A stretch of DNA of 24,000 nucleotides, from contig NZ_ABCG01000004.1 of the NCBI RefSeq assembly GCF_000181515.1, positions 1 through 24,000 on the forward strand. Direction: 5' to 3'. Made by a program: the position numbers and the translations under genes. This DNA comes from Erythrobacter sp. SD-21 (GTDB lineage: Bacteria > Pseudomonadota > Alphaproteobacteria > Sphingomonadales > Sphingomonadaceae). Each line of letters starts with the position of its first letter. Within the stretch, counting starts at the first letter, position 1. Under the pieces are notes generated by a model, which saw nothing but the letters and a program-made list of their open reading frames with translations, made no database searches and had not been told where the DNA came from. Below, piece after piece: positions 705 to 13,439 of this stretch.

Positions 705-1613
705 TTGGAGACGCCTAACGTGATCAAGGAAGCCCGCCTGCCCGTTCGTCATCGCTCATGGTTGTTCGCGCCGGGTGACAGCGAGAAAAAGATGACCAAA
801 GCGACCGAAGGGGACGCCGACATTGTTATCTTTGATCTCGAAGATGCCGTAGTCGAGGGTGAGAAACCCGCCGCACGCGCGCGGGTCTCTCATTTTCTTC
901 AGATGCAAAACGAAGCCGGACGTGCACGTCTATGGGTTCGTATCAACCCGCTCGATGGGCCACATACTGCGGACGATTTGGCAGCGGTATTGCCCATGCA
1001 GCCAGGCGGGATCATGCTGCCGAAATCACGCGGCCGTGAGGATGTGGAAAAGCTCGACAGGATGCTGACCGCGCTGGAACTCGAACATGGTCTTGAGCCA
1101 GGAGCCATGCCAGTTATCGCGCTGGTTACTGAAGTCGCCGCAGCCATGTTCACCACGGGCGATTATGCGGGAGCCCCGAGACTAGTTGCCATGACTTGGG
1201 GAGCGGAAGATCTTGCAGATTCCGTTGGGGCGCTGTCCAACTGCGGGCCAGACGGAGATTACCGTTTCACCTATGAACTCGCTCGCAGTTTGACATTGCT
1301 GGGTGCTGCGGCGGCTTCGGTACCGGCCATAGAGACAATAGACGCAGATTTCCGCAACTTACAGGGCCTGAAGGTGCGCGCAGAGCGAGTTCGGCAGGAT
1401 GGCTATCGCGGTATGTTGGCGATACACCCAGACCAGGTCCGGGTAATCAATGCAGCTTTCACGCCGACCGAGAAAGAGGTTCAAGAGGCGCGCGAGATTA
1501 TCGATCTGTTCGATGCTAAGCCCGGGGCCGGAACGATCGGGTATAAAGGTAAAATGCTTGATCGGCCTCACTTGAGCCGCGCACGGCAACTCCTCGCGCT
1601 GCGTTCTAGCTAG
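705..1613 (+). CDS. CoA-ester lyase / citrate lyase beta-subunit-like protein (HpcH/HpaI aldolase-CitE family)
   Basis: The N-terminal SWLFAPGD...ADIVIFDLEDAV and the later ...MTWGAEDL... fit the CitE/malyl-CoA lyase family pattern. The track start at 705 is TTG. An in-frame GTG at 720, preceded by GGAG (707-710), is the more likely start. Confidence 0.75.
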   Translation: METPNVIKEARLPVRHRSWLFAPGDSEKKMTKATEGDADIVIFDLEDAVVEGEKPAARARVSHFLQMQNEAGRARLWVRINPLDGPHTADDLAAVLPMQPGGIMLPKSRGREDVEKLDRMLTALELEHGLEPGAMPVIALVTEVAAAMFTTGDYAGAPRLVAMTWGAEDLADSVGALSNCGPDGDYRFTYELARSLTLLGAAAASVPAIETIDADFRNLQGLKVRAERVRQDGYRGMLAIHPDQVRVINAAFTPTEKEVQEAREIIDLFDAKPGAGTIGYKGKMLDRPHLSRARQLLALRSS

Positions 1614-2989
1614 GTCGAAACTACGATTTCGTCGTACACCGGGTCATACCGCAGTTCGATTCCCGCGCTGACCAGTTGTTTGAGAGTGACGAATTCCTCG
1701 CTGGCCTTTGCATTGCGAAGACCGGCAAATTCAGTCGGGTCAAATCGGTCCTCGAAGAGGTCAAGCACCTGACCAAGATGCACTGATATCGTGCGATCCC
1801 CATTAACCTGAAAGGGCACGGCACCGACTTCTCGCCCGTCCATCCTCACAGCCATACGTTTCTTGAAAGCGGGCTGCGTGATCTGATCGATATAGGCGAG
1901 AGAGGCTGATGTAGCTATTTGTTCGATTTCAGCCTTGGATGTTCGACCTCTTGTTGACGACGTGGGGGGGGCTGCACGATTGACCGCTGCTTCCGCAGTG
2001 GGTCGGTGTGGCGGATCATGCCGACCGAGGCGGGATTGCACCGAAGCTGTGCCGGCAAGGCCGGTTGCCGTGTTTCCGGGCGCCCTGATTGCTTGGCGAG
2101 CGATTGCGGCCCTTGCCGAACGTTCACCCTGGACCTTTGCAAGTATCGCGACGCGCTCGCTTTCGCTGAGAATGGTTTGCGCTGGCTCAAGCCGTTCCGT
2201 GGACGAGGTGGGGACTTTATCGACACCGCTATTTTGCGGGCGGGAAGCGAATGTGTCGGTCGCGCCGGCTATCTCCGGTATACCGTGCGAATTTTCTGAA
2301 TCGGAGAATGCTTGGCTAGCGTTCAAGTTATAGACGGGCCGTGTTTCCGAAGCGGGAATGGACGAGGAAGGCGCCCCATTTCTCTGCGCAGCCTCATCAC
2401 CGCCAAGATATCCAACATGGCTTATCGACGGACGCACTGAGTCGACTTGGGGAGGCGCCGAGGTGTTATAGTCACGTGAAACCTCGAGCGGGCGCGGAAG
2501 CTTTTCTGTCGTGCTGCTGGGAGTGACTGTACGGATTTCTTTGCCCAGCTCGCCCACTCTACGCGAGGGGGTACTTCTGACGAGAGGCATGTCGGAAACG
2601 TTAGCCGCGAATTGTGGACTTTCTACCACGGTTTTCAATTCTGCCCCCGCGTGGTCACCGGAAGCATTTCTGACCTCCCTCGACTGAGCGCCCGTCAACA
2701 TGGGTTGCGGAACTCTATCAACCGCAATCTGGTCACGGAAATCGCGTGCCGGCTGGCTGGCAAATTTCATTCCCAAATTGGGCGATAGCTGGGGACGAGG
2801 TTCAATTGCGACAGGCGATACCACTGTCGTACGGTCAATCTGACGAGCCGCACGAGGTCGATCTGGCAAGCGAACCCTCTCAGCAGCCGATTGCGGTTCA
2901 AATTTGATTGACGGCTGAGCGACGACGAGGCCCCAAACGGCTGCGCTTGAAAGAAGGGCTGTCGTGCGATGGACGCTCTGGCTTCTCAC
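1610..2989 (-). CDS. Hypothetical protein, last gene of the curli-type operon: N-terminal signal anchor, ~350-aa Pro/Ser/Arg-rich low-complexity region, ~100-aa C-terminal globular domain
   Basis: GTG start at 2989 preceded by GGGGAGGA. Hydrophobic N-terminus TTALLSSAAVWGLVVA. Long low-complexity middle. Ordered-looking C-terminus (AFKKRMAVRMDGREVGAVPFQVNGDRTISVHLGQVLDLFEDRFDP...IELRYDPVYDEIVVST). Same strand as the CsgH-like gene and 50 nt downstream of it. I recognise no family. Confidence 0.6.
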   Translation of the reverse strand: MRSQSVHRTTALLSSAAVWGLVVAQPSIKFEPQSAAERVRLPDRPRAARQIDRTTVVSPVAIEPRPQLSPNLGMKFASQPARDFRDQIAVDRVPQPMLTGAQSREVRNASGDHAGAELKTVVESPQFAANVSDMPLVRSTPSRRVGELGKEIRTVTPSSTTEKLPRPLEVSRDYNTSAPPQVDSVRPSISHVGYLGGDEAAQRNGAPSSSIPASETRPVYNLNASQAFSDSENSHGIPEIAGATDTFASRPQNSGVDKVPTSSTERLEPAQTILSESERVAILAKVQGERSARAAIARQAIRAPGNTATGLAGTASVQSRLGRHDPPHRPTAEAAVNRAAPPTSSTRGRTSKAEIEQIATSASLAYIDQITQPAFKKRMAVRMDGREVGAVPFQVNGDRTISVHLGQVLDLFEDRFDPTEFAGLRNAKASEEFVTLKQLVSAGIELRYDPVYDEIVVST

Positions 2990-3039
2990 AATTCCTCCCC
3001 CAAATCAACAAAACCAGACCTGTGTCCGTTAGTTAAAAC

Positions 3040-3393
3040 TTACTTGACCTCCAGCGACGCGCAATCTCCTGCCGTCAGTGTGTATGTAGATCCAGATTGT
3101 TCTGTGATCTCGGCAGTTGCGCACCATGTCCCGCTGTGCGACACCCGAAACTGCGAAATAGAGGTCTCGGTCTGGGCCGGAACTTTCGACTTCCCGCTAT
3201 GCCGGGAACGCGAGTCGCCGATCACTTCGATTTGGTAATCGACGACTTGATCGTGAGGCGACTTCGCAATCATCTCGATTTGGATTGTTCCATCGCCATC
3301 CTCGATCCGCATTGAGATTGCCTGTTCGCTTTCCACTACCTGTTCTCCGGTTGCCACGCTGCTGAGCAGAATGAGAGATGCGATAGTAATCAT
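3040..3393 (-). CDS. csgH: CsgC/CsgH-like small secreted protein (putative curli amyloid-inhibiting chaperone)
   Basis: 117 aa with signal peptide MITIASLILLSSVATG. The alternating beta-strand pattern DYQIEVIGDSRSRHSGKSKV...ISQFRVSH...WCATAEITEQSGSTYTL parallels E. coli CsgC CRVQILSLREGSSGQSQTK...LTKLSLNI...VKIVVTVSDGQSLHL. It lies in a curli locus of the alphaproteobacterial type, where CsgH is known. ATGA start/stop overlap with the upstream gene. Assigned by pattern and context, not by a search. Confidence 0.5.
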   Translation of the reverse strand: MITIASLILLSSVATGEQVVESEQAISMRIEDGDGTIQIEMIAKSPHDQVVDYQIEVIGDSRSRHSGKSKVPAQTETSISQFRVSHSGTWCATAEITEQSGSTYTLTAGDCASLEVK

Positions 3394-4148
3394 AGTCCGC
3401 CCCCGGCCTGGGTGGAGAATTGTTCCACGATCGCGTTGATGAGGGCCTGCGTTTCGGCCGATAGTTCGCTTGGATTCGGTTCCTCGGATGTCGGCTGCGC
3501 CGGGGCCAACGTCGAACTGCCGAGTGCGACAGATGCGATGGCCTGATCCTCATTTGAATTGAGCGCGCTGTTACCCCGGGCAAGCCTGGAAATAGCCGAT
3601 TCGAGCGTTGCTACCCGATCGCTATCGAGACCCTCGCCGAGCAGGCGTTCTTCCGGAGACAGGCTGGGTGCGGAGTTGCCGGCAAACTCTTCGGACCTGT
3701 CCTCCAATCTAACAAGGCACAATTCGATAATTGCCGGATTGCTGGGCTCCCGCTCGCAAATGTCCGTCCCATTTACGGCGCTGAATAGTATCGCGCGGTC
3801 ACGCTCCGTCAGTTGCGCCAGTGCGCGCCGCCCCCGTTCGCGGGTTAGTTGATCGGTTGTGCCGCCCATTTCGCGATCACGGGCAGACAATTGGACCATC
3901 TCCTGGTCGGGCCGACGGGGGTTCTCGAGCGTTTGGCCCTCCAGCGACTTGTCATCGCTAGCTGGAGGATTCGTCGCTTTCTCTGCGGTGGTTGGAAGAA
4001 ATGCCTTGAGCGAGGCACTCTCTGCACTATCGGAGGAAGTCTGGTTTACGTAAACGGAATCTTCGGCAGCCAGAACAGGAACGTTTCTAGGTTCCAAATC
4101 CGATTGGGTGGAAAGCAAAAGCAACGGAAGAAGAGTGAAAGTCGACAT
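3390..4148 (-). CDS. Hypothetical acidic secreted protein (252 aa), embedded in the curli operon
   Basis: The track ORF (3390-4262) overlaps the upstream gene. ATG at 4148 gives a signal-like N-terminus MSTFTLLPLLLLSTQS and lies 2 nt after the short-curlin stop (TGAACATG). Glu/Asp/Ser-rich, helical-looking C-terminal half, two Cys (DICEREPSNPAIIELC). Its stop overlaps the csgH-like start. No family recognised. Confidence 0.6.
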   Translation of the reverse strand: MSTFTLLPLLLLSTQSDLEPRNVPVLAAEDSVYVNQTSSDSAESASLKAFLPTTAEKATNPPASDDKSLEGQTLENPRRPDQEMVQLSARDREMGGTTDQLTRERGRRALAQLTERDRAILFSAVNGTDICEREPSNPAIIELCLVRLEDRSEEFAGNSAPSLSPEERLLGEGLDSDRVATLESAISRLARGNSALNSNEDQAIASVALGSSTLAPAQPTSEEPNPSELSAETQALINAIVEQFSTQAGGGL

Positions 4149-4150
4149 GT

Positions 4151-4909
4151 TCAATTCCCGCTTGGCGGTGGTGCCCCCGTATTCGTTTGCGTAATTTGGA
4201 GCGCTTGACCGCCGTCTTGCGTAATCTGAAGGTCGGATAGGCCGCTTCCGTTTTGGGTCCATTCCAGCCGGTTGCCTGCACCGAGTTGTGTCGCGGTCAT
4301 GATATTATTGTCGCCCGATTGTGCGAGGCGAGCCTGATTATCGCTGCCATCCTGCACGAGGTTAAGTCGATTGCCTGACCCGGACTGGCTGATTGCCGCT
4401 GCGGAATAGAGGTCGCCACTTTCAAATTGTGACAGCTCCGCAGAGTTTCCACTGCCTCTTTGAGCAAGCAGAAGAGCCGCTTGCCCGTTGCCGTCCTGTC
4501 CCGCGAAGACGGTGTTGCTATCTCCGTCCTGAGCGATTTCGGTATAATGGTTGCCATCATCCTGACGCAAATCCACTTGGTTGGCGTCCCCGTTCTGAAT
4601 GACGCGGGCATAGGCGCTAGTGCCCTGTTGATCGGCTTCGGCGGTGTTGCCCGATCCGATCTGGGAGATGAAAGCTCCACGATCCTCTTGGACCGGAACT
4701 GCGATTTCCTCGAAAGTGAAGCCGGCGTTGCCGTTCTCGCCGGAGTTCCCGTTATTGCCACCGCAGGGATTGCCTGTGCCGGCGCCATTCCCGTCTCCAC
4801 AAGGATCACCCGGGGGTATGTTCCCAGTGTCCGCGAGAACAGGCGCTGCGAATGACATCATCGCTGCAGCTAGAATTGCCGTAAGAGAGTTCGGTTTCAT
4901 CTGAGGCAC
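4151..4909 (-). CDS. Short curlin-repeat protein (CsgA/CsgB-like amyloid subunit, 252 aa)
   Basis: Signal peptide (SLTAILAAAMMSFAAPVLA), then a Gly/Asn-rich segment with two PCG motifs. About 15 half-repeats of the form phi-x-phi-x-Q-x-G-x-x-N-x follow (e.g. LNLVQDGSDNQ ARLAQSGDNNI MTATQLGAGNR LEWTQNGSG). GTG start at 4909 lies 7 nt after GGGAGAG; the alternative ATG is at 4900. Confidence 0.85.
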   Translation of the reverse strand: MPQMKPNSLTAILAAAMMSFAAPVLADTGNIPPGDPCGDGNGAGTGNPCGGNNGNSGENGNAGFTFEEIAVPVQEDRGAFISQIGSGNTAEADQQGTSAYARVIQNGDANQVDLRQDDGNHYTEIAQDGDSNTVFAGQDGNGQAALLLAQRGSGNSAELSQFESGDLYSAAAISQSGSGNRLNLVQDGSDNQARLAQSGDNNIMTATQLGAGNRLEWTQNGSGLSDLQITQDGGQALQITQTNTGAPPPSGN

Positions 4910-5038: not shown

Positions 5039-6883
5039 TCAGTTGCCCTGGGTCACCATAGCCGAGTTTCCAGTACCGGTTTGCGTGACAGTCGACATGT
5101 GACCATCGCCAGTCTGATTGACAGTCGCGGTATTGAACTCGCCATTCTGCGTGATCATCGACTGAAGTTCCGAACCGTTCTGACTGCTTGTTGCGGTGTT
5201 ATCAGCCCAGTTCTGGACGATTTCCGAGGTGTTCAGCAGACCGCCATTCTGGGTAATGGTGGCGATGCTGTTGTTCTGCGGAGATCCGCCGGCATCGTCA
5301 CCGTTCTGGGTTATGCGAGCGGTGTTTTGATCCGCACCCGCCAACTGGTGGATGGTAGCTGTTTCACCGCGGGCGTTGCCGATCTGAGTGATGAACGCCT
5401 GACCGCTCGCACCTTCCTGATTGATGGTCGCATCGTTGTTGCCTTCCGAACCCTGAAGGATGGTGGCATCGTTATCCGACGATCCGAGCGTCTGGTTTAC
5501 CCGGGCAAAGTTCCCGAAGCCGCCCTGATCGATATCGGATTCGTTACCCGTACCAAACTGGTCGACATCGATTTCGCTGTTCTGACCGTCCTGACGTGCG
5601 CGTGAGGTTTCGAACGAACCTCCTTGGTCGACGTTGGCCAGCTGACCACGATTGAGCTGGGTCAGGTCCGACGTGTTGTCGCTGCCGGTCTGGGTTACAT
5701 TGGTCGTCAGGGAATTGTCAGGGTTGTTTACGGGAGCGCCGCCGAGATCGGCCTGAACGATGGTCGAATCGTGCCCGTCGCCAGTCTGGTTGACCGTTGC
5801 GGCGAAGGTATTCGAACCGTCATTGTTGAACGTTTGCGTGATGGTCGAAGTGCTCACGCCGTTCTGCGTCACGACCGCGTCCATGTTGGTCGCTTCATCA
5901 CCCAAGATGGTCTGATTGACAGTCGAAGTCGCGCCGCCTGCCTGACTGACGCTGGCGAAGGCATCGCTGGCATCGCTGCCGGAAATCGACTGGTTTACAT
6001 CGGAATTGTTTCCGTTGCCGTTCTGCATCACTTCGGCGGCCAGCAAGCTCGAACCATCCTGATCGACATCCGACAGGTTATCGTTGCCGAGCTGCGTGAC
6101 CAGCGCCGACTCCTCCGAACCGTTCTGGTCGACGTAGGACTCGTTGCCGTTGCCGGTCTGGTCCACGATCGCGGTCAGAAGCGAGGGATCGACAGTGCTC
6201 TGCTGACTAACAGTCGAAACGTTATCGTCGCCAGTCTGATCGACCGAGGCAAGGCTGCGATTGGCGTTGCCGGGGTTACCATTGGTCATCTGCGTGGTTG
6301 ACGATGAGTTGCGGTTACCAATCTGCGTCGTGTTCGCGGTCGAATAGGTTGCCGGATCCTGAGTGATCGACGACATGTTGTCGTCGCCCGACTGCACTAC
6401 GCCGGCCGCTGCATCGCCATCCGTGACACGCAGGCTGTTGCCCGCCTGCACCACGGAAGAATCATTGCCTGCGCCATCCTGAAGCACCGTCGCAGTAAGG
6501 AAGCGTCCATCCTGCGAAACGTCCGAAATGTTGTCACCGTTCTGGTCGACGCGAGCGAGATTGTTGCGTCCGCCCACTTGCGTAACAGTGGATTCGGCGC
6601 TGTCGCCTGCCTGATCGACGAACACTTCGTTGGGCGTGTTTTCAGTGCCGGTGCCGCTCTGGTTCACGGTCGATTGTCCGTTGGTACCCGCCTGATCAAC
6701 GGTAGCTTCGTTGTAGACACCGGTCTGCAGTACATCGGAATCGTTGCTCGAACCGGTCTGCGTGACGTCGGCCGACAGATTGTGGCCGGTCTGATCAATA
6801 TCGCTATTGTTGCTCTGCGCGAATGCGGGAGCGGCGATGCCAAGGGCAATGATCGATGCACTGGTGAGAATAGTCTTTTTCAT
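5039..6883 (-). CDS. Giant curlin-repeat protein, paralogue 1 (614 aa)
   Basis: Start chosen at MKKTILTSASIIALGIAAPAFA|QS, by conservation of the signal peptide across the four paralogues (the track start at 6925 is a GTG inside a hairpin). The whole mature protein is ~11-aa half-repeats S-x-[VI]-x-Q-x-G-x-x-N-x. No Lys or Cys in the mature part by my reading. No Shine-Dalgarno is visible upstream (AAATTAACCAGATCATG). Confidence 0.85.
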   Translation of the reverse strand: MKKTILTSASIIALGIAAPAFAQSNNSDIDQTGHNLSADVTQTGSSNDSDVLQTGVYNEATVDQAGTNGQSTVNQSGTGTENTPNEVFVDQAGDSAESTVTQVGGRNNLARVDQNGDNISDVSQDGRFLTATVLQDGAGNDSSVVQAGNSLRVTDGDAAAGVVQSGDDNMSSITQDPATYSTANTTQIGNRNSSSTTQMTNGNPGNANRSLASVDQTGDDNVSTVSQQSTVDPSLLTAIVDQTGNGNESYVDQNGSEESALVTQLGNDNLSDVDQDGSSLLAAEVMQNGNGNNSDVNQSISGSDASDAFASVSQAGGATSTVNQTILGDEATNMDAVVTQNGVSTSTITQTFNNDGSNTFAATVNQTGDGHDSTIVQADLGGAPVNNPDNSLTTNVTQTGSDNTSDLTQLNRGQLANVDQGGSFETSRARQDGQNSEIDVDQFGTGNESDIDQGGFGNFARVNQTLGSSDNDATILQGSEGNNDATINQEGASGQAFITQIGNARGETATIHQLAGADQNTARITQNGDDAGGSPQNNSIATITQNGGLLNTSEIVQNWADNTATSSQNGSELQSMITQNGEFNTATVNQTGDGHMSTVTQTGTGNSAMVTQGN

Positions 6884-6915
6884 GATCTGGTTAATTTCGA
6901 AAATGGGAAGGAATA

Positions 6916-6943
6916 CCGGGCGCACCTCGATTGGCGCGCCCGG
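6916..6943 (-). terminator. Hairpin plus U-rich tail after giant curlin 2 (candidate partial intrinsic terminator)
   Basis: CCGGGCGC(6916-6923) pairs with GCGCCCGG(6936-6943). On the - strand it is followed by UAUUCCUUCCCAUUUUCG. Confidence 0.45.
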
Positions 6944-6952
6944 CTCGGAAGC

Positions 6953-8608
6953 TTACATTCCCTGCGTGACGCTGGCCGTGTTGCCGTTGCCGTTCTGATT
7001 CACGTATGAGGTGTTGGCATCGCTGTTCTGCGTAACGGTCGCGCTGTTACCCGAACCATCCTGTGCGATATCCGACAGGTTGTCGTTGCCCAGTTGGTTG
7101 ACGTCTGCAGTGTTCCCGAAACCGTCGACCGTACCGTTCTGCGAGAGCCGGCTGGTGTTGCCCGAACCAGACTGCAGGACATCAGCGGTGCTGTTAAAGC
7201 CTGACTGAGTCAGTTCGGACACGTTGAGCGCACCCGACTGGCTGACCGTCGCGGAATTTTCGCTACGGTCACCGCTGACATCGCCAAGCTGGGTGATGAG
7301 CGAGGTCGAACCATCCGAGCCAGCCAACTGCTCGACAAAGGCGCTGTCGTTGCGGCCGGTCTGGTCGATGGTCGAGGTCGCACCGATGCCATCCTGAGTG
7401 ACGTTGGCAGAGTTATTCAGGCCAAGCTGAAGCGAGTTCGAGGTGTTCGCATCGCCCGACTGCAGGACAGTGAGATCGTTGCCCGCGGTGCCCTGGAAAG
7501 CATCGACGATATTGCTGTCGCCGGTCTGATCGATATCGGCAAACGCGCTCTTGTTTTCCTGGACGAGGGCCGAGGTGTTGTCGTCGCCAGTCTGGTTGAC
7601 GTCGGCCACGAGACCGCCATCCGCGTTACCGATGACACCAAAGCCTTCATCGCGCTGCGTGACATTCGATAGATTGCCGCTGCCGTTCTGGTTGACGGTC
7701 GCCATGAAGTTGCTCGAACCATCGTTGTCGAACGTCTGCGTGATGTTGGAAGTGCTCGCACCGTCCTGCGTCACGATGGCGTCCTGCGTCACCGATTCAT
7801 CGCCATTTGCGCGCTGGGTAATGTTCGAGGTCGCGCCGTTAAATTGCGTGACATCGGCATTCAGGTCACTCGTCAGGTTGCCCGTCAGCGACTGGGTGAT
7901 GTTCGACAGCGAACCGCCCGACTGATTGACGCGGGCTACCGCTGTCGGATTCTGACCGCTGGCGTCACTGGCGGTCTGTATGATGTTCGAGGTCGAAGCA
8001 TCCTGTGTGACATAGGCGTTCAGGTTCTTACCCGCGTTCGATCCGGTCTGGATGATGTCCGAGCTCGCATCGCCCGTCTGGTTGACCTGGGCGCGAAGAC
8101 CACCGGTGTAGCCAGGGCCGTCCGAGTTCTGGTCGATATTCGACGAGTTGTTGTCACCGGTCTGCGTGACGCGCGCGGTCTGGTTGAAACCGCCGCCGGC
8201 AGCGATGGTCTGGGTGATGCCGGACATGTTGCTGTTGCCGATCTGGCTGACAGTTGCGTCGGGATCGAAATCGGCAACGCCGGTCGTGCCGTCCTGGCCG
8301 GGTGCGGTGTCCGGATCGTCTTGGTCGATTGTGGAAACGTTGCTGTCACCGTCCTGCGTCACATCGGCAAGGCCGAAGAAAGAGTCTTGGTCGATCGTTG
8401 AACTGTTGCCGGCTCCCGACTGAACATTGCTGGCCGAGTTGCTGTCGCCAGTCTGATCGATATCCGAAGTATTGGAACCGCTCTGTGAAACAGTTGCGCC
8501 GTTGGCATTGCCGGTCTGGTCGACGTCGCTGGTATTGCTTTGCGCCGCTGCCGGAGCTGCAATGCTGAGGGCCAGTACGCTGGCGCCTGTCATGATAGTT
8601 TTTTTCAT
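6953..8608 (-). CDS. Giant curlin-repeat protein, paralogue 2 (551 aa)
   Basis: MKKTIMTGASVLALSIAAPAAA|QS signal peptide, RBS AAGGTGAG, curlin half-repeats throughout, C-terminus NGNGNTASVTQGM. The central block ITQTFDNDGSSNFMATVNQNGSGN is collinear with paralogue 1. Confidence 0.88.
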   Translation of the reverse strand: MKKTIMTGASVLALSIAAPAAAQSNTSDVDQTGNANGATVSQSGSNTSDIDQTGDSNSASNVQSGAGNSSTIDQDSFFGLADVTQDGDSNVSTIDQDDPDTAPGQDGTTGVADFDPDATVSQIGNSNMSGITQTIAAGGGFNQTARVTQTGDNNSSNIDQNSDGPGYTGGLRAQVNQTGDASSDIIQTGSNAGKNLNAYVTQDASTSNIIQTASDASGQNPTAVARVNQSGGSLSNITQSLTGNLTSDLNADVTQFNGATSNITQRANGDESVTQDAIVTQDGASTSNITQTFDNDGSSNFMATVNQNGSGNLSNVTQRDEGFGVIGNADGGLVADVNQTGDDNTSALVQENKSAFADIDQTGDSNIVDAFQGTAGNDLTVLQSGDANTSNSLQLGLNNSANVTQDGIGATSTIDQTGRNDSAFVEQLAGSDGSTSLITQLGDVSGDRSENSATVSQSGALNVSELTQSGFNSTADVLQSGSGNTSRLSQNGTVDGFGNTADVNQLGNDNLSDIAQDGSGNSATVTQNSDANTSYVNQNGNGNTASVTQGM

Positions 8609-8718
8609 CTCACCTTCTTCACGTTTAAGTGCTTGTTATTATTTGCGACTTAATTGGTACTGCGGGGTTTTCCGTGCCGCTTGCCTGTCACACTCTGTTG
8701 CGTTCGCAGTGCGAGAAG

Positions 8719-8749
8719 GCGGGAGCGTGCCGCGCTGGCACACCCCCGC
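8719..8749 (-). other. Interrupted GC-rich hairpin after giant curlin 3
   Basis: GCGGG(8719-8723)/CCCGC(8745-8749) enclose GTGCC(8727-8731)/GGCAC(8737-8741). An AT-rich stretch follows at 8609-8660, upstream of paralogue 2. Confidence 0.35.
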
Positions 8750-8756
8750 TCTTTCC

Positions 8757-10412
8757 TCAGTTCTGCGCTACGGTTGCGCTGTTGCCTGCACCGTCTTGAG
8801 CAATGGTGGAGACGTTCGAGCTTCCACCCTGCGTAACCAGCGCACTATTCAAGTCGCCCGACTGGGTGATCGTGCTCCGGTTCAGATCGCCGGAATCGAT
8901 CAGCGTGGCCAAGTTGTCGTGGCCGTCCTGCATAATCAGCGAGTAACCGTTGGTGCCGGTCTGCAAGCTGGAAGCGCTGTTGCCCGACACGGCCGGATCG
9001 CCCAGCGTGTTGGTCTGGCCGATCGTGCTGGCGTTGCCCGAACCTTCCTGCGTGATGCTGGCCTCCATCTGGCGCGCGGGACCACCGTTTGCGGCGCTAT
9101 CCGAATACTGGTTGATGGTGGCGGTGTTCGAGGCGCCGACCTGATCGACAGCGGCGCTCGAAAAGTTCGAGTAGCCGGTCTGGCTGACATTGCTGACCAG
9201 ATTGTCACCGACCTGGCTGACGAAGGCCGAGCCGAAGTTGGCCGACTGCGTTACGCTCGAGTAGTTGTCGAAACCATCCTGCGTGACACCGACCATCGCT
9301 ACGTCGCCGTCACCGTCAAACTCGCCGGCTGCGTTATCGAGGCCCGGCTGATCGACGATGCTTGTGTTACGCTCGCCGTACTGTTCGACAGCAGCCACGT
9401 TCTGCGAACCGAACTGCGTAATGGTCGAATTGTTGTCCGTACCGTCTTGGAGAAGGTCCAGCTGCTGCAAACTGGTCAGCCGGTTTGGCGAACCCTGAGT
9501 CGCGTTGCTGACATTGGTGGTGCCATCCTGCGAAATGTTTGCAGTGGCTGAGGCACCCTGCTGCGTCAGGTTGGACGAGTTGCCCGTGCCGCTCTGCGAA
9601 ACGAAGCCGTCGTTGTACTGGCCCGTCTGGTCCGTCGTAGCCATGTTGGACGTACCGTTCTGGATGATCGATGCGTCCTGATCGGCGGGGTTTGCCGAAC
9701 TCAGCTGGTTGATCGTGCCGGAATTGCCGGTCCCCGTCTGGCCGATTGTAGCGAAACTGCGCAGTTCGGCGCCGTTGCCGCTGACCTGCTCTTGACGGAT
9801 GACGCCATCGTTGTCGTCGCCGGTCTGGCTGATAGCGCCGCTCGAATACTTGGCCGGATTCTGATCGATGTTTGCCAGATTTCCGTTGCCGTTCTGGACA
9901 ATACCGCCTTCGGCCGCATTGTTGGTGTTACCGATGAAGTTGCCCGTGCCGCGCTGGTCGACATAAGCCTCGTTGAGATCACCGGTCTGGTAGACTTCGG
10001 CCTGCGACGCGCGGCCGGCCTGCGTCACGGAGGCATAGCTGTCCCCGTTCTGGTCCACATATGTGGTCAGTCGGTTGGCATCGCCGCCGTCTCCGTTTTC
10101 CTGCAGAACGTCGGCTTCGGCACTGTCGCCGGCCTGGATCACGGTTGCCCGATTGGTTTTCGAAAGCTCCTGGCCGTTGCCGGTCTGGACAATGTCGACA
10201 TCGCCGTTGCTGCCGGACTGATCGACGACTGCGTCGTTGAACTGCGAGCTCTGGTCGATGTCGGACGTGTTGTCCGAACCGGTCTGCGTCACATCGGCGC
10301 TGAGATCGTTGCCGTTCTGATCGATATCGGACTGATTGTTGCTTTGTGCAGCTGCCGGAGCCGCGATGCCGAGCGCGAGTGCGCTGGCGCTGGTGAGTAT
10401 AATCTTTTTCAT
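8757..10412 (-). CDS. Giant curlin-repeat protein, paralogue 3 (551 aa)
   Basis: Start at MKKIILTSASALALGIAAPAAA|QS, preceded by AGGAGG (the track start at 10448 is upstream of the RBS). Curlin half-repeats throughout; C-terminus DGAGNSATVAQN. Confidence 0.87.
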   Translation of the reverse strand: MKKIILTSASALALGIAAPAAAQSNNQSDIDQNGNDLSADVTQTGSDNTSDIDQSSQFNDAVVDQSGSNGDVDIVQTGNGQELSKTNRATVIQAGDSAEADVLQENGDGGDANRLTTYVDQNGDSYASVTQAGRASQAEVYQTGDLNEAYVDQRGTGNFIGNTNNAAEGGIVQNGNGNLANIDQNPAKYSSGAISQTGDDNDGVIRQEQVSGNGAELRSFATIGQTGTGNSGTINQLSSANPADQDASIIQNGTSNMATTDQTGQYNDGFVSQSGTGNSSNLTQQGASATANISQDGTTNVSNATQGSPNRLTSLQQLDLLQDGTDNNSTITQFGSQNVAAVEQYGERNTSIVDQPGLDNAAGEFDGDGDVAMVGVTQDGFDNYSSVTQSANFGSAFVSQVGDNLVSNVSQTGYSNFSSAAVDQVGASNTATINQYSDSAANGGPARQMEASITQEGSGNASTIGQTNTLGDPAVSGNSASSLQTGTNGYSLIMQDGHDNLATLIDSGDLNRSTITQSGDLNSALVTQGGSSNVSTIAQDGAGNSATVAQN

Positions 10413-10434
10413 TTGGTCCTCCTGTTGAACGTAG

Positions 10435-10463
10435 CGAGGCGGAAGCACAGGGCCCCCGCCTCG
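10435..10463 (-). other. GC-rich intercistronic hairpin between giant curlins 4 and 3
   Basis: CGAGGCGG(10435-10442) and CCGCCTCG(10456-10463) form an 8-bp perfect stem with a 13-nt loop. No U-tract. Confidence 0.4.
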
Positions 10464-10469
10464 ATCTGG

Positions 10470-11831
10470 TTAATTGCCCTGCGTGACAGTGGCCGTGTTG
10501 CCGGTGCCGTTCTGCGCAACCGACGAGTAATCGGATGTGCCCGTCTGAGTGACGGTCGCTGCGTTACCCGTTCCGTTTTGATCAATATAAGACTCGTTGT
10601 TGGAACCGGATTGATCGACCAGCGCGGAGTTTCCGTCGCCGTTTTGCATGATCGAGCTGTATTCGCTCGACCCGTTCTGCAGCACATTTGCGAACTGGTT
10701 GGCACCGTCCTGCAGGATGTTGCTTACATCCGCGCTGCCAAGCTGTTCGACGATTGCCGAATTGTCCGAACCGGCGCCGCCGATCTGCTGGATATCGCTG
10801 ATGTTGCTGCCGCCGGACTGCGTAACGAGAGCTGTGGAATCGCGGCGCTGATCGATGGCGCTCGTGTTGCCGTCACCGGACTGAATGACGGTAGCCGAGT
10901 TATCTCGGCCGACATCGGTTGGGCTGGGCGGAGCAAGGCCTTCGCCCTGAGTGACGAGACTGCCGTTGCCATTCCCGGACTGCGTTATCGAAGCAAAGTT
11001 CGAAGTGTCCTGGATCAGGTTGCTGTCATTGCCATCACCGGTCTGGCTGACGGTGGCATCGTTGAACTGGTCCTGGAACAGGTTGCTGTCGTTATCGCTA
11101 CCCGACTGCAAAACCGTGCCGGTGTTGCCTTGGCGGTACTGGTCGACATCGGAGAAGTTGTTCGATGCCGACTGCGTAACGATGAGCGAGTTGGCCTGAC
11201 GGGACTGATCTACGTCGGAAATGTTGTTCGTTCCCGACTGGATCACGTCCACGCGGGAGGCAGGATCGAATTCCACGCCATTCACGCCGGTGTAATCCTG
11301 GTTGATGGTGGAGCGGTGGCCAGTACCCTCCTGCGAGTTGTAGGCCGCTGCGCCGGTGATCCCGCCGGCAGAGTCGTCCTGGACCATGGTCGACTGGTTG
11401 TCGCTTCCGTTCTGGATGACCCGCGCGTTATTGGCATAACCCGAAGGTACGGTGCTGTCGGCATCCGTATCGGCAGGATCGTAGCTCGAAACCTGAGTGA
11501 TGTTGGCAATGTTCGACTGTCCACCGGGATTATCGTTGTTTTGTTCGACACGGGCCCGGCTGTTATCGCCGTCCTGATCGATAATCGATTCGTTCGATGG
11601 TGTGTTGAACGGTGTGGAGCCGACCGGGTTTTCGGTCTGTGTTACTTCGACGAAGTTATCGTCGCCGTCCTGATCGACATCGGAGAGGTTCTCGTTGCCC
11701 TGCTGGCTGACGGTGGCCGAGTTGTCCTCGCCGTTCTGCCAGATGTCGGAGGTTTGAACCTGTTGGGCAGACGCCGGAGCAGCAGCGATAAGCGCAACGA
11801 TCGAAGCGCCTGTAAGGATCGTATTCTTCAT
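10470..11831 (-). CDS. Giant curlin-repeat protein, paralogue 4 (453 aa)
   Basis: Start at MKNTILTGASIVALIAAAPASA|QQ (ATG 11831, AAGGTGA upstream). About 33 half-repeats by hand count. C-terminus NGTGNTATVTQGN. No Lys or Cys seen in the mature part. Confidence 0.87.
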   Translation of the reverse strand: MKNTILTGASIVALIAAAPASAQQVQTSDIWQNGEDNSATVSQQGNENLSDVDQDGDDNFVEVTQTENPVGSTPFNTPSNESIIDQDGDNSRARVEQNNDNPGGQSNIANITQVSSYDPADTDADSTVPSGYANNARVIQNGSDNQSTMVQDDSAGGITGAAAYNSQEGTGHRSTINQDYTGVNGVEFDPASRVDVIQSGTNNISDVDQSRQANSLIVTQSASNNFSDVDQYRQGNTGTVLQSGSDNDSNLFQDQFNDATVSQTGDGNDSNLIQDTSNFASITQSGNGNGSLVTQGEGLAPPSPTDVGRDNSATVIQSGDGNTSAIDQRRDSTALVTQSGGSNISDIQQIGGAGSDNSAIVEQLGSADVSNILQDGANQFANVLQNGSSEYSSIMQNGDGNSALVDQSGSNNESYIDQNGTGNAATVTQTGTSDYSSVAQNGTGNTATVTQGN

Positions 11832-11869
11832 GACTTGCATCACCTTTTGATCAAGGCGATACTCAAGGA

Positions 11870-11962
11870 TCACGACGGCGCAGAAGACGCCGAGTGGCTT
11901 AGGTATCGCAGCCTACATTTCTGCACGCATCGGAGTTGCCGCTCCTTTGCGTGCGTTTTTTT
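11870..11962 (+). ncRNA. Candidate small RNA (~90 nt), antisense to the csgG/curlin-4 intergenic region
   Basis: The + strand has TTGCAT(11835-11840), a 17-nt spacer and GATACT(11858-11863). Downstream is a strong + oriented terminator. No + strand CDS is present. Prediction only. Confidence 0.25.
11923..11962 (+). terminator. Strong intrinsic terminator oriented on the + strand, inside a - strand operon
   Basis: GCACGCA(11923-11929) pairs with TGCGTGC(11948-11954), with an inner GGAG/CTCC stem. It is followed by G and then TTTTTTT(11956-11962). On the - strand the hairpin is followed by AGAAAUG, with no U-tract. Confidence 0.6.
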
Positions 11963-12039: not shown

Positions 12040-13014
12040 TCAGGAGCCGGTGCGGCTCCCGCGGCCTTCGTCGCGTTCGACTACCTCGAGGGCGGTCAGC
12101 GATCCGGCGCGGCGAACGGCGTTCTGTACGTCGCGCGCGTCGTAGACGCCGTCCCGCTCGGCGCGGTAGGTCGACATGAGCGGCTGGGCCGCCTGCATGT
12201 CGGCAAACCGCCACAGGTCGAGTTCGACGCCTTCGAGGACCAGGCCATAAACGGCCTTTTCGATCGCCTGCTGGAGGGCTATCTGGTCGGGTTCGTTGGT
12301 GGTGATCCCCCATTCGGCTTCGAGCAATTCCTTGAATCCGACGAATTTGTACGTGCTCAGTCCGACTGCCTTGCTGGCAATGGTCTTCGAGGCCGTCACA
12401 TTGGTGAGAACCTCGCCGGTGCGGACGGAGACCGCCCGCAGGTACACCGTTACAGTGTCCTGACGGTATTCGGTCCGGCCGCCAATGCCGAGGAAGGCTG
12501 CGCCGGCGCCGCCGGTCACGGTGTTGGTGTCGTAGCCGACGATCCCGCCTTCGAGCAGGACCCCGGCGAACATGAGCGCGGGCAGTGCGCTGGCGTCGAC
12601 TTCTTCCTCGCCGAGGTAGCGCTTGCGCATCTCGGTGATGATCTGGCGTTCCTTCAGGAGGTTATCGAGGCGTTCGCGTTCCACCACGGTGAACCAGTCG
12701 CGCGAGCCGGCATCCTGGAGGGCCTTCACGAGGATCGAACTTGCCCCTTGCGTGACGGCGCGTGACAGCGTTTGCCCGGCCTCGGTGGGCTTGAACTGCC
12801 CGGTCTGGTCGGTGAAACCGTAGACGGCAATCGCCACCTGGCGTTCCGGCGCGGGCAACTGCTGCAGCAGGCTTTGTGTCTGGGTCTGCTTGGGGAAATA
12901 GGCGAGGCTGGTTTCTTCCGGCAGCAGGTCGCGGCCGTCGTCACCGAGCGTGGTGCACCCACCCAGTAGCGAGGCGGCTGCCGCGAGGCAGCAGGTCAGT
13001 CCGATGCGGGCCAT
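12040..13014 (-). CDS. csgG: Curli production assembly/transport outer-membrane lipoprotein CsgG
   Basis: 324 aa. Lipobox LLGGC|TT. The block AIAVYGFTDQTGQFKP...TLSRAVTQGASSILVKAL is characteristic of the CsgG family. Its start shares 1 nt with the csgF stop (TGATG). Confidence 0.92.
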   Translation of the reverse strand: MARIGLTCCLAAAASLLGGCTTLGDDGRDLLPEETSLAYFPKQTQTQSLLQQLPAPERQVAIAVYGFTDQTGQFKPTEAGQTLSRAVTQGASSILVKALQDAGSRDWFTVVERERLDNLLKERQIITEMRKRYLGEEEVDASALPALMFAGVLLEGGIVGYDTNTVTGGAGAAFLGIGGRTEYRQDTVTVYLRAVSVRTGEVLTNVTASKTIASKAVGLSTYKFVGFKELLEAEWGITTNEPDQIALQQAIEKAVYGLVLEGVELDLWRFADMQAAQPLMSTYRAERDGVYDARDVQNAVRRAGSLTALEVVERDEGRGSRTGS

Positions 13015-13439
13015 CAGTTCACCTCGATGAATAGCGGAACCACGATGCGGGTTTCTTCGCCCGTATCGTCATTGGTGATGATGAGCGTCACGGAATCGAG
13101 CGATCGGAAGAACGAGATCGTCTGGCCGCCAAAGCTGATGACCCCGCTTTCCTGCGGATCGTCACCGAAGATGGCGTCGACGATTTGCGACGACAGCGCC
13201 GAAAGCAGGCGGGATTGCAATTGGCGGGCGAAAATATCGGCTTGCGAATTGGTGCTGGCCGCATTCGGGTCCTTGGTCTTGTTCTGCGCATTCGCAATGC
13301 CGAGGATGTGGTTGGAATTGAACGGATTGCCGCCGAATGTCGGGCTTATCGGTTCGTGGACGATGTCCTGTGCATTGGCCGGGACCGCAACACATGCCGC
13401 ACCCGCGCCAATAATAGCCCAAAGGCCTCTCGAAGTCAT
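13014..13439 (-). CDS. csgF: Curli assembly component CsgF
   Basis: 141 aa with a signal peptide ending PANA|QD. The mature N-terminus IVHEPISPTFGGNPFNSNHILGIANAQNK matches the conserved CsgF N-terminal motif that inserts into the CsgG channel. Strong SD GAGGGGGG. Immediately upstream of csgG. Confidence 0.88.
   Translation of the reverse strand: MTSRGLWAIIGAGAACVAVPANAQDIVHEPISPTFGGNPFNSNHILGIANAQNKTKDPNAASTNSQADIFARQLQSRLLSALSSQIVDAIFGDDPQESGVISFGGQTISFFRSLDSVTLIITNDDTGEETRIVVPLFIEVN

Follow-up and report, generated by a model that had tools for sequence, protein, structure and literature searches.

A previously unnamed exported protein encoded between a short curlin and CsgH is very probably an accessory component of an alphaproteobacterial curli operon type

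Curli biogenesis is a model for the safe making of amyloid, and several of its accessory proteins are small. CsgE (~110 amino acids (aa) when mature, of alpha/beta fold), the secretion specificity factor, keeps curlin soluble and delivers it to CsgG, whose nonamer it binds and caps. CsgC and CsgH are ~100-aa immunoglobulin-like beta-sandwiches (PDB 2xsk/2y2t) that are thought to prevent premature polymerisation. In the Fap system of Pseudomonas, the gene for the periplasmic accessory FapA lies with those of the subunits; FapA is mostly disordered, influences which subunit polymerises and delays fibrillation. Here we describe gene X, an unnamed gene in the curli locus of Erythrobacter sp. SD-21, found in a stretch of 24,000 nucleotides (nt) (NCBI RefSeq assembly GCF_000181515.1, contig NZ_ABCG01000004.1, positions 1 to 24,000; hereafter the window). 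X is encoded between a short curlin gene and a CsgH-like gene, and its product, exported by the general secretory (Sec) route and not a lipoprotein, is very probably a genuine accessory component of one type of curli (type VIII secretion) operon in Alphaproteobacteria, in a family that was previously unnamed. The parts list of curli, CsgA to CsgH, has scarcely been altered since CsgH was named in 2012. The study that named it reported Alphaproteobacteria to be without csgC, csgD and csgE; its data set held no sphingomonads and gene X is unmentioned there (Dueholm et al. 2012, PMC3521004). CsgH was later counted in 1,839 genomes, with no further accessory gene listed (Sleutel et al. 2023, PMC10192328). 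We found gene X described neither in the searchable literature nor in any family database, and full-text searches on curli together with Sphingomonadales or Erythrobacter found nothing relevant.

The genes of the locus form an array on the minus strand in the order csgF, csgG, four giant curlins, the short curlin, X, the CsgC/CsgH-like gene and a 459-aa open reading frame (ORF) (Table 1). The original prediction, made from the sequence alone, had placed the X start 2 nt after the short-curlin stop and the X stop across the start of the csgH-like gene, and both junctions proved exact. The minus strand reads TGA-AC-ATG at 4153..4146 (short-curlin stop, 2 nt, X start) and ATGA at 3393..3390, in which the TGA of X runs into the ATG of the CsgH-like gene. 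The product of 252 aa has an isoelectric point (pI) of 4.4, with 40 Asp and Glu residues against 21 Lys and Arg, and contains two Cys. A second candidate start codon, an in-frame TTG 6 bases 5' of the ATG (4148..4153, minus strand), would overlap the curlin stop by 4 nt, and the same -4 overlap is present in several homologues. CsgE, which the prediction had called absent, was found neither among the genes of the window nor in any related locus inspected.

X belongs to a sizeable protein family. A word-indexed search returned 57 homologues (90% clustered set), and an exhaustive HMMER scan of 1.84 billion representatives returned 119 clusters (50% identity) at an expectation (E) value of ≤1e-3, with 52 at E ≤1e-10; nearly all are 190-310 aa long. 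The sole multi-domain match, P0147 (907 aa), was rejected as a PAS-repeat false positive, leaving ~118 clusters, and the apparent domain fusion P0068 has an unrelated N-terminus that probably stems from a miscalled start. Members diverge down to ~25% identity. Their named sources are the Sphingomonadales genera Erythrobacter, Qipengyuania, Altererythrobacter, Porphyrobacter, Sphingopyxis and Sphingomonas, together with one member of the Caulobacterales, Candidatus Phycosocius bacilliformis, and every member with a source name is annotated "hypothetical protein". X itself matched nothing in Pfam or NCBIfam, and no consistent family match emerged among 100 homologues. The X profile found nothing better than E 0.6 among PDB sequences, and P0016 came with a faint precomputed DUF7979 label, which was not reproduced.

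The breadth of this family bears on whether X is a gene at all. The GC-rich window holds many long spurious ORFs, and window X has a weak Shine-Dalgarno sequence and an atypical signal peptide, as might be expected of an untranslated chance frame. Against this stand the ~118 clusters with invariant residues and with kept length and position, drawn from several genera and two orders, which effectively refute a spurious origin; we regard it as vanishingly improbable. Because of this conservation X is taken to be a real coding gene, and window X is the founding member of a new curli accessory family within a known system.

The anatomy of X was read from alignments of 48 and 100 members, with signal peptides and Cys counted over 150; signal peptides were called by a heuristic rather than by SignalP. 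An h-region is present in 139/150 members and is followed by a small-x-small site in 130/150, usually ending A-x-A-Q. The prediction that X is an exported protein of no known family is supported. In window X the h-region is TFTLLPLLLL, the basic n-region and the AxA site are both absent, and the N-terminus aligns with the canonical signal peptides of its homologues. That X might be a lipoprotein was rejected, since a lipobox-like match occurs in merely 3/150 members.

Behind the signal peptide lies a variable acidic and polar tether, about 60-100 aa long across the family. Its conserved positions are glutamines in phi-x-Q-phi-(S/G/T) motifs, Q36 and Q86, with a third, Q100, just inside the helical part. 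Q86 and Q100 are kept in at least 90% of 100 homologues amid varying sequence, and Q36 is kept in the close set. The C-terminal domain carries the motifs GTDIC...LC..R(I/L)E.RS.EF, LS.EERLLGEGLD, NQAIASVAL and LSAETQALINAIV. Six of its residues are invariant in the alignment of 100 sequences (G127, D129, C131, C144, E149 and A205), and R151, F155, E166, L169, Q202 and L209, all present in window X, are conserved in at least 90% of them. Window X thus carries the whole core signature of the family, namely G-x-D-x-C ... C-x4-E-x-R-S-x-E-F together with LS-x-E-(E/Q)-R-L-L, Q-A-I-A-S and the terminal helix (ETQALI-AIV). The mature part holds exactly two Cys in 149/150 members, spaced 10-15 residues apart and usually 13, and C131 and C144 presumably form a periplasmic disulfide.

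Structure was predicted with AlphaFold2 in a full-length run (48 sequences) and a run on the C-terminal domain (67 sequences). Residues 1-98 were disordered, with a predicted local distance difference test (pLDDT) score below 50, and residues 99-252 formed seven helices (pLDDT 70-85), with no strands. The original description of a helical second half with a Cys pair therefore stands, the packing of the helices being uncertain at a predicted template modelling (pTM) score of 0.24-0.30. A structure search on the AlphaFold model, which the prediction had proposed, did not place X in a fold: Foldseek against the PDB gave 0 matches in one run and two meaningless ones (E ~7) in the other. In L071, a more remote csgG locus without CsgH, a 209-aa curlin is followed by a shortened X of ~170 aa (about 5090..5598, plus strand). 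This short form retains a signal peptide, three Q motifs, a G-R-D-R-C...D-C core and the last helix, which suggests that these are the minimal functional elements of X.

The position of X in other genomes was examined by scanning one genome per GTDB species, with start codons chosen heuristically, which gave 31 X loci. All 31 have a CsgH-like ORF directly after X and in the same orientation. A curlin lies directly upstream in 29/31; of the remaining two, one locus begins within X (L021) and the other shows no curlin in ~850-1400 nt of upstream contig (L030). CsgG lies upstream in 27/31 loci, the other four being cut off by the contig end or the 10-kb flank. The gaps run from -8 to +88 nt between curlin and X and from -4 to +15 nt between X and CsgH. 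Since such small gaps recur across the genome loci, the tight coupling first noted in the window is a property of the family and not a peculiarity of the window. The curlin-X-CsgH order is also found in the distant metagenomic members L035 and L036 (E 1e-4 to 1e-7 to window X), in Sphingomonas floccifaciens (L037) and in a Joint Genome Institute (JGI) genome (L038). Ca. Phycosocius (L082) shows this order as well, in the form csgF, csgG, curlins, curlin, X and then a 113-aa ORF.

Two Sphingomonas loci depart from this layout. Sphingomonas sp. NY01 plasmid p2 (L040; NZ_CP101724.1, 74245..77879) carries csgF, csgG, two curlins and X, with no CsgH-like ORF within 9 kb. S. floccifaciens (L037) has the curlin, X and CsgH, no CsgF, and only a divergent, atypical CsgG-like gene; two ORFs (262 and 317 aa, of no known identity) lie between that gene and the curlin module. 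Both X-bearing loci are on plasmids or plasmid-like contigs, the L037 contig carrying RPA/RP-C replication genes. Because both have short curlins only, X is not tied to giant curlins, and that association was rejected. LuxR/GerE-type regulators adjoin the curlin-X-CsgH module in the distant loci L035 (2710..3405), L036 (1456..2830) and L037 (8751..9338); they may be CsgD-like regulators, which Alphaproteobacteria reportedly lack.

The gene that stays with X throughout is the short curlin. The short curlins upstream of X form a defined orthologue group (33 sequences, many invariant positions), and the window's own scores higher with the NCBIfam model for CsgB than with that for CsgA (72 against 45 bits), both under their cutoffs. 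The association was also tested in reverse, by running a profile of the orthologous short curlin against JGI metagenome contigs, which yielded 41 loci. In 29 of these the curlin is at least 46% identical to a family member, and X lies downstream in all 28 that could be evaluated; the 29th has just 275 nt after the curlin and is not judgeable, and the same holds for L070, a 64% identical curlin match at a contig end. Ten remote curlins (≤43% identity) have neither X nor CsgH beside them. The conservation and co-occurrence that the original prediction proposed to check are borne out for CsgH and curli loci, in both test directions, and giant curlins are not required.

In two of the 28 loci, L053 and L068, ~1 kb is inserted between curlin and X. 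The L053 insert (1800..2681, plus strand) encodes a 293-aa secreted ORF of no known family, which ends 4 nt ahead of X; the L068 insert lies between 326 and 1390. Window X itself follows the orthologous short curlin and precedes CsgH, the usual place of a member, the exceptions being L040 and L071 (no CsgH) and L053 and L068 (insert). X is linked to the curlin and CsgH genes as tightly as those are to each other; it is co-transcribed with the CsgB-like curlin and CsgH and probably co-translated with them.

This arrangement bears on a role that the original prediction had offered for X, that of a substitute for CsgE. X would then be a functional analogue of CsgE that docks with the CsgG nonamer from the periplasmic side, serves there as gate or adaptor, and brings curlins to the channel. 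The absence of CsgE from the window and from all related loci inspected fits this idea, as does its reported absence from Alphaproteobacteria (Dueholm et al. 2012). X is also exported, soluble and co-expressed with the substrates, and the curlin-like motif described below would suit a substrate-binding adaptor too. However, X gave no match to CsgE (PF10627) at E ≤0.1, nor did 100 homologues at E ≤1, nor was there one in NCBIfam, and a disordered and all-helical protein does not resemble the small alpha/beta CsgE. In the Rhizobiales loci of Table S1 in PMC3521004, compared by adjacency of accession numbers in place of locus scanning, the numbers of curlin, CsgH and curlin are consecutive, with no CsgE and no room for X, so that alphaproteobacterial CsgG can work without either. 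Our own search for CsgH loci outside the clade added none, the word-based search with the window CsgH returning only itself, tblastn against plasmids finding no match and a single-sequence PDB search giving spurious calmodulin matches only. X moreover follows the curlin/CsgH module and not csgFG, from which the module is ~8 kb away in the window, and it persists in S. floccifaciens without CsgF and without a typical CsgG. Because Rhizobiales lack CsgE yet have no X, and because X travels with the subunit and chaperone genes, X is not a general replacement for CsgE. A substitute for CsgE is not favoured by the comparison, and we consider the analogue unlikely.

A likeness between X and its partner curlin was seen at the mature N-terminus. 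In 36/36 complete sequences, the motif G-(V/A)-(F/Y)-(V/I)-x-Q-(I/V)-G opens the repeat region of the short curlin beside X. The X family has (A/V)-(F/Y)-(V/I)-x-Q-A-(P/G), ~0-20 residues from the predicted signal-peptide cleavage site. The variants include S31-VYVNQ-T37 in the window, VFVEQAG and AFVNQAP, and T-A-I-D-Q-I-G or E-A-M-Q-I-G in distant subfamilies. The first repeat of the giant curlins, S-D-I/V-D-Q-T/N-G, is unlike that of the short curlin. A 7-column position-specific scoring matrix (PSSM) of the curlin strand was scored against composition-matched shuffles: 53% of X N-regions lay at p ≤0.05 (above 95% of shuffles) and 29% above 99%, compared to 17% at p ≤0.05 for the C-terminal domains used as control. 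Alignment of the X and curlin alignments with hhalign gave a single local alignment, X 28-42 to curlin 72-86 (P 1e-4, probability 58%). With a closer X set the match was colinear and took in both the signal peptide and the motif (P 2.5e-4), the probabilities of the two runs being 43-58%; the control alignment of X with CsgH gave P 0.04 and a probability of 1.4%. Collectively, these results suggest, though not conclusively, that the N-terminus of X imitates the strand with which the repeats of its neighbouring curlin begin, the motif being short and the sequences related.

On this basis we tentatively propose that X is a periplasmic holdase or escort that binds the CsgB-like short curlin through curlin-strand mimics; we infer its periplasmic residence, the direct contact with curlin and the capping. 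X would stay in the periplasm, where its Cys pair would form a disulfide in the helical C-terminal domain, and would bind stoichiometrically the short curlin made alongside it through translational coupling. Recognition would be by strand mimics on the disordered tether, the A/V-F-V/I-x-Q motif and two or three phi-x-Q-phi motifs, which would each add as a beta-strand to the open edge of a terminal curlin repeat, the first or the last. The motif of X is followed by A-P or A-G and not by the solenoid turn I-G-x-G-N, so that the added strand would end the solenoid without extending it. Self-templating would thereby be blocked and the nucleator kept inert until its handover to CsgG, while CsgH, encoded by the next gene, would cover catalytic, substoichiometric inhibition. 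In E. coli it is through its terminal repeats, R1 and R5, that CsgA nucleates and responds to CsgB, and for this reason a mimic of R1 is a plausible control point. The curlin-like strand motif at the N-terminus speaks for the other role named in the original prediction, that of an escort or amyloid inhibitor, here one that would bind curlin.

A more specific version of the holdase proposal, which we hold to be rather unlikely as it stands, makes X a tethered single-strand mimic that covers the edge from which the nucleator curlin templates, or the fibre ends. The cap would be a genetically encoded copy of the first beta-strand of the curlin, with a strand-breaking A-P after it, and the other Q motifs and the disulfide-locked helical domain would set the place and time of its release, CsgG and the sphingolipid outer membrane being possible sites. 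If true, the mimic would be the first case in nature of an inhibitor or escort that acts on a functional amyloid by strand capping, a template for peptide cappers, and a natural design principle for capping amyloid growth.

Several points weigh against a curlin-binding holdase. The X motif does not covary with that of its partner curlin, the variable position being identical in only 2/25 pairs. For that reason recent gene conversion is not the cause of the likeness, and it was rejected as the source of the motif; co-evolution of the two motifs is likewise unsupported. The motif is short (~5 defined residues), 47% of X members miss p ≤0.05, the C-domain control of the PSSM is itself elevated at 17%, and the hhalign probabilities reach just 43-58%. 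The likeness could be a relic of a partial curlin duplication. CsgH already provides an inhibitor function, and the helical domain has a low pTM and no structural neighbours. The binding of curlin by X is deduced from sequence.

The first of these points would also suit a different periplasmic or envelope role for X, such as signalling or matrix interaction, in which X is merely co-regulated with curli and its motif is a non-binding relic of duplication. Besides the short motif, absent or degenerate in many members and without covariation, this role is consistent with the helical domain being the best-conserved part of X and with the LuxR/GerE regulators that flank distant loci. Yet the Q positions are the sole conserved residues in a region that drifts in a family diverging to ~25% identity, which argues for selection, and the adjacency to curlin is strict in both test directions. 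We judge a role apart from curlin quite unlikely.

The periplasmic residence that the holdase proposal assumes has to be weighed against export through CsgG. X might itself be a CsgG substrate and become part of the extracellular fibre, where it would cap it, serve as tip adaptor or connect the nucleator to the cell surface, with the helical domain as its functional head. Its signal peptide, spacer and first strand are colinear with those of the secreted short curlin, a long disordered region suits a narrow channel, the layout of peptide, linker and head recalls CsgF, and the coupling implies stoichiometry with the nucleator-like curlin. In contrast, unfolded export through the ~1-nm CsgG constriction is difficult to square with a folded helical domain that bears an invariant Cys pair, and CsgF, the surface coupling factor, is already present. 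The clear CsgG substrates here are also Cys-free when mature: the giant curlins contain none, and CsgF has just one, within its signal-peptide-like N-terminus. The window CsgH-like protein has two Cys. Because the clear substrates lack mature Cys, whereas the periplasmic CsgH has a Cys pair, we take X to be probably periplasmic. This argument is weakened, and with it the holdase proposal, by the 11/36 short curlins that have a Cys pair of their own. On balance secretion of X into the fibre seems improbable, about as much so as an analogue of CsgE.

The short-curlin Cys pair sits in a Gly/Asn-rich N-terminal insert, residues 33-55 (4745..4813, minus strand), of the form PPG(D/N)PCGxGPGxGTGNPCxGNNGN. 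The 11 loci with this insert beside X include L005, L006, L010, L026, L033, L034 and L035, and two pairs among them are duplicate records. The insert is unusual for a protein expected to cross CsgG unfolded. All four giant curlins have a pI of ~4.05 and zero Cys, and each has its own MKK...AAPAxAQ signal peptide.

Table 1. Coding features of the window's curli array and the parts of X, in window positions.
Feature	Position	Strand	Evidence and remarks
csgF	13014..13439	-	Pfam CsgF E 2e-30; with csgG, the secretion module heading the array
csgG	12040..13014	-	Pfam CsgG E 1e-59
Four giant curlin genes (467, 563, 551, 628 aa)	5039..11873	-	Curlin_rpt E 1e-40 to 1e-49; placed after csgG and before the short curlin
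Short curlin (CsgB-like), 252 aa	4151..4909	-	Curlin_rpt E 3e-14; first repeat strand GAFISQIG, residues 78-85
X (unnamed), coding sequence	3390..4148	-	252 aa plus stop; ORF and translation, homologues; no Pfam, NCBIfam or PDB match
X, signal-peptide-like N-terminus, residues 1-20 (MSTFTLLPLLLLSTQ...)	4089..4148	-	Best 10-residue mean Kyte-Doolittle 2.26
X, curlin-R1-like strand motif SVYVNQT, residues 31-37	4038..4058	-	Family consensus A/V-F/Y-V/I-x-Q-A-P/G
X, variable acidic/polar tether, residues 16-98	3855..4103	-	Predicted disordered, pLDDT <50; Q motifs at Q36 and Q86
X, conserved all-helical C-terminal domain with Gly-rich tail, residues 99-252	3393..3854	-	7 predicted helices
X, Cys pair C131...C144	3717..3758	-	Invariant in both family alignments (48 and 100 members)
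CsgC/CsgH-like chaperone gene	3040..3393	-	NCBIfam chap_CsgH_alph (NF041112) 35.5 bits against a cutoff of 35

The CsgH-like orthologues gave weak Pfam matches to Tafi-CsgC (5 members) and CsgH (2 members), and in a PDB profile search the top match of the family was CsgC, weakly, at E 0.48. Downstream of csgH, after 50 nt, lies the 459-aa ORF (1610..2989, minus strand), which has its own Shine-Dalgarno sequence, a signal peptide, a long Pro/Ser/Ala-rich region and a pI of 9.3. Its conserved C-terminal domain of ~85-115 aa recurs beside csgH, on either strand, in 14/34 related loci (two pairs being duplicate records); corresponding sequences lie, for example, at L030 2284..4209 (minus) and L002 11111..12223 (plus). 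The domain is without a match in Pfam, NCBIfam or PDB, and the product may be an additional curli-associated protein. The stretch that separates this ORF from the csgH stop contains a weak hairpin (3015..3028, minus strand) which, with its T-rich tail, resembles a terminator. The promoter and terminator scan found two terminator-like sites where 4.3 are expected by chance, so that this hairpin does not stand above chance.

Compared with the known curli and amyloid proteins, X resembles several in part. Like CsgE (PF10627), it is a small, Sec-exported, soluble curli accessory protein, and in these CsgE-less genomes it is a candidate for part of the CsgE job, at the least for the holding of curlin. 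It has no sequence likeness to CsgE, is about twice as long, and in place of the CsgE fold is predicted, with moderate-to-low model confidence, to have 98 disordered residues followed by seven helices with a disulfide and no strands. Like CsgC and CsgH (PF10610/PF21112), X is a probably periplasmic protein encoded beside curlin genes, and it is translationally coupled to CsgH; it has neither their profile nor their fold, and it co-occurs with CsgH rather than replacing it. The signal peptide and first strand motif of the curlins CsgA and CsgB (PF07012) align with the start of X, the likeness being confined to one local stretch of 15-35 columns at the N-terminus. Unlike the curlins, X is without tandem S-x5-Q-x-G-x-G-N-x-A-x3-Q repeats, a Curlin_rpt match or a predicted beta-solenoid. 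With CsgF (PF10614) X shares the plan of a small acidic exported accessory with a conserved mature N-terminal peptide, a flexible linker and a folded C-terminal part. It has no match to the CsgF profile, the CsgF motif F-x-P-x-N-P-x-F-G-G-N-P is different, and a true CsgF is encoded in the same operon. FapA belongs to a different amyloid system, and it is not known to be homologous to X or to have a disulfide-bonded helical domain. X also defines a distinct curli operon type, made up of csgF, csgG, a variable number of curlins, a CsgB-like curlin, X and csgH, that could be used for annotating Sphingomonadales and Caulobacterales genomes, and X is a concrete candidate for keeping very large, highly acidic curlins soluble in the periplasm of systems that have no CsgE.

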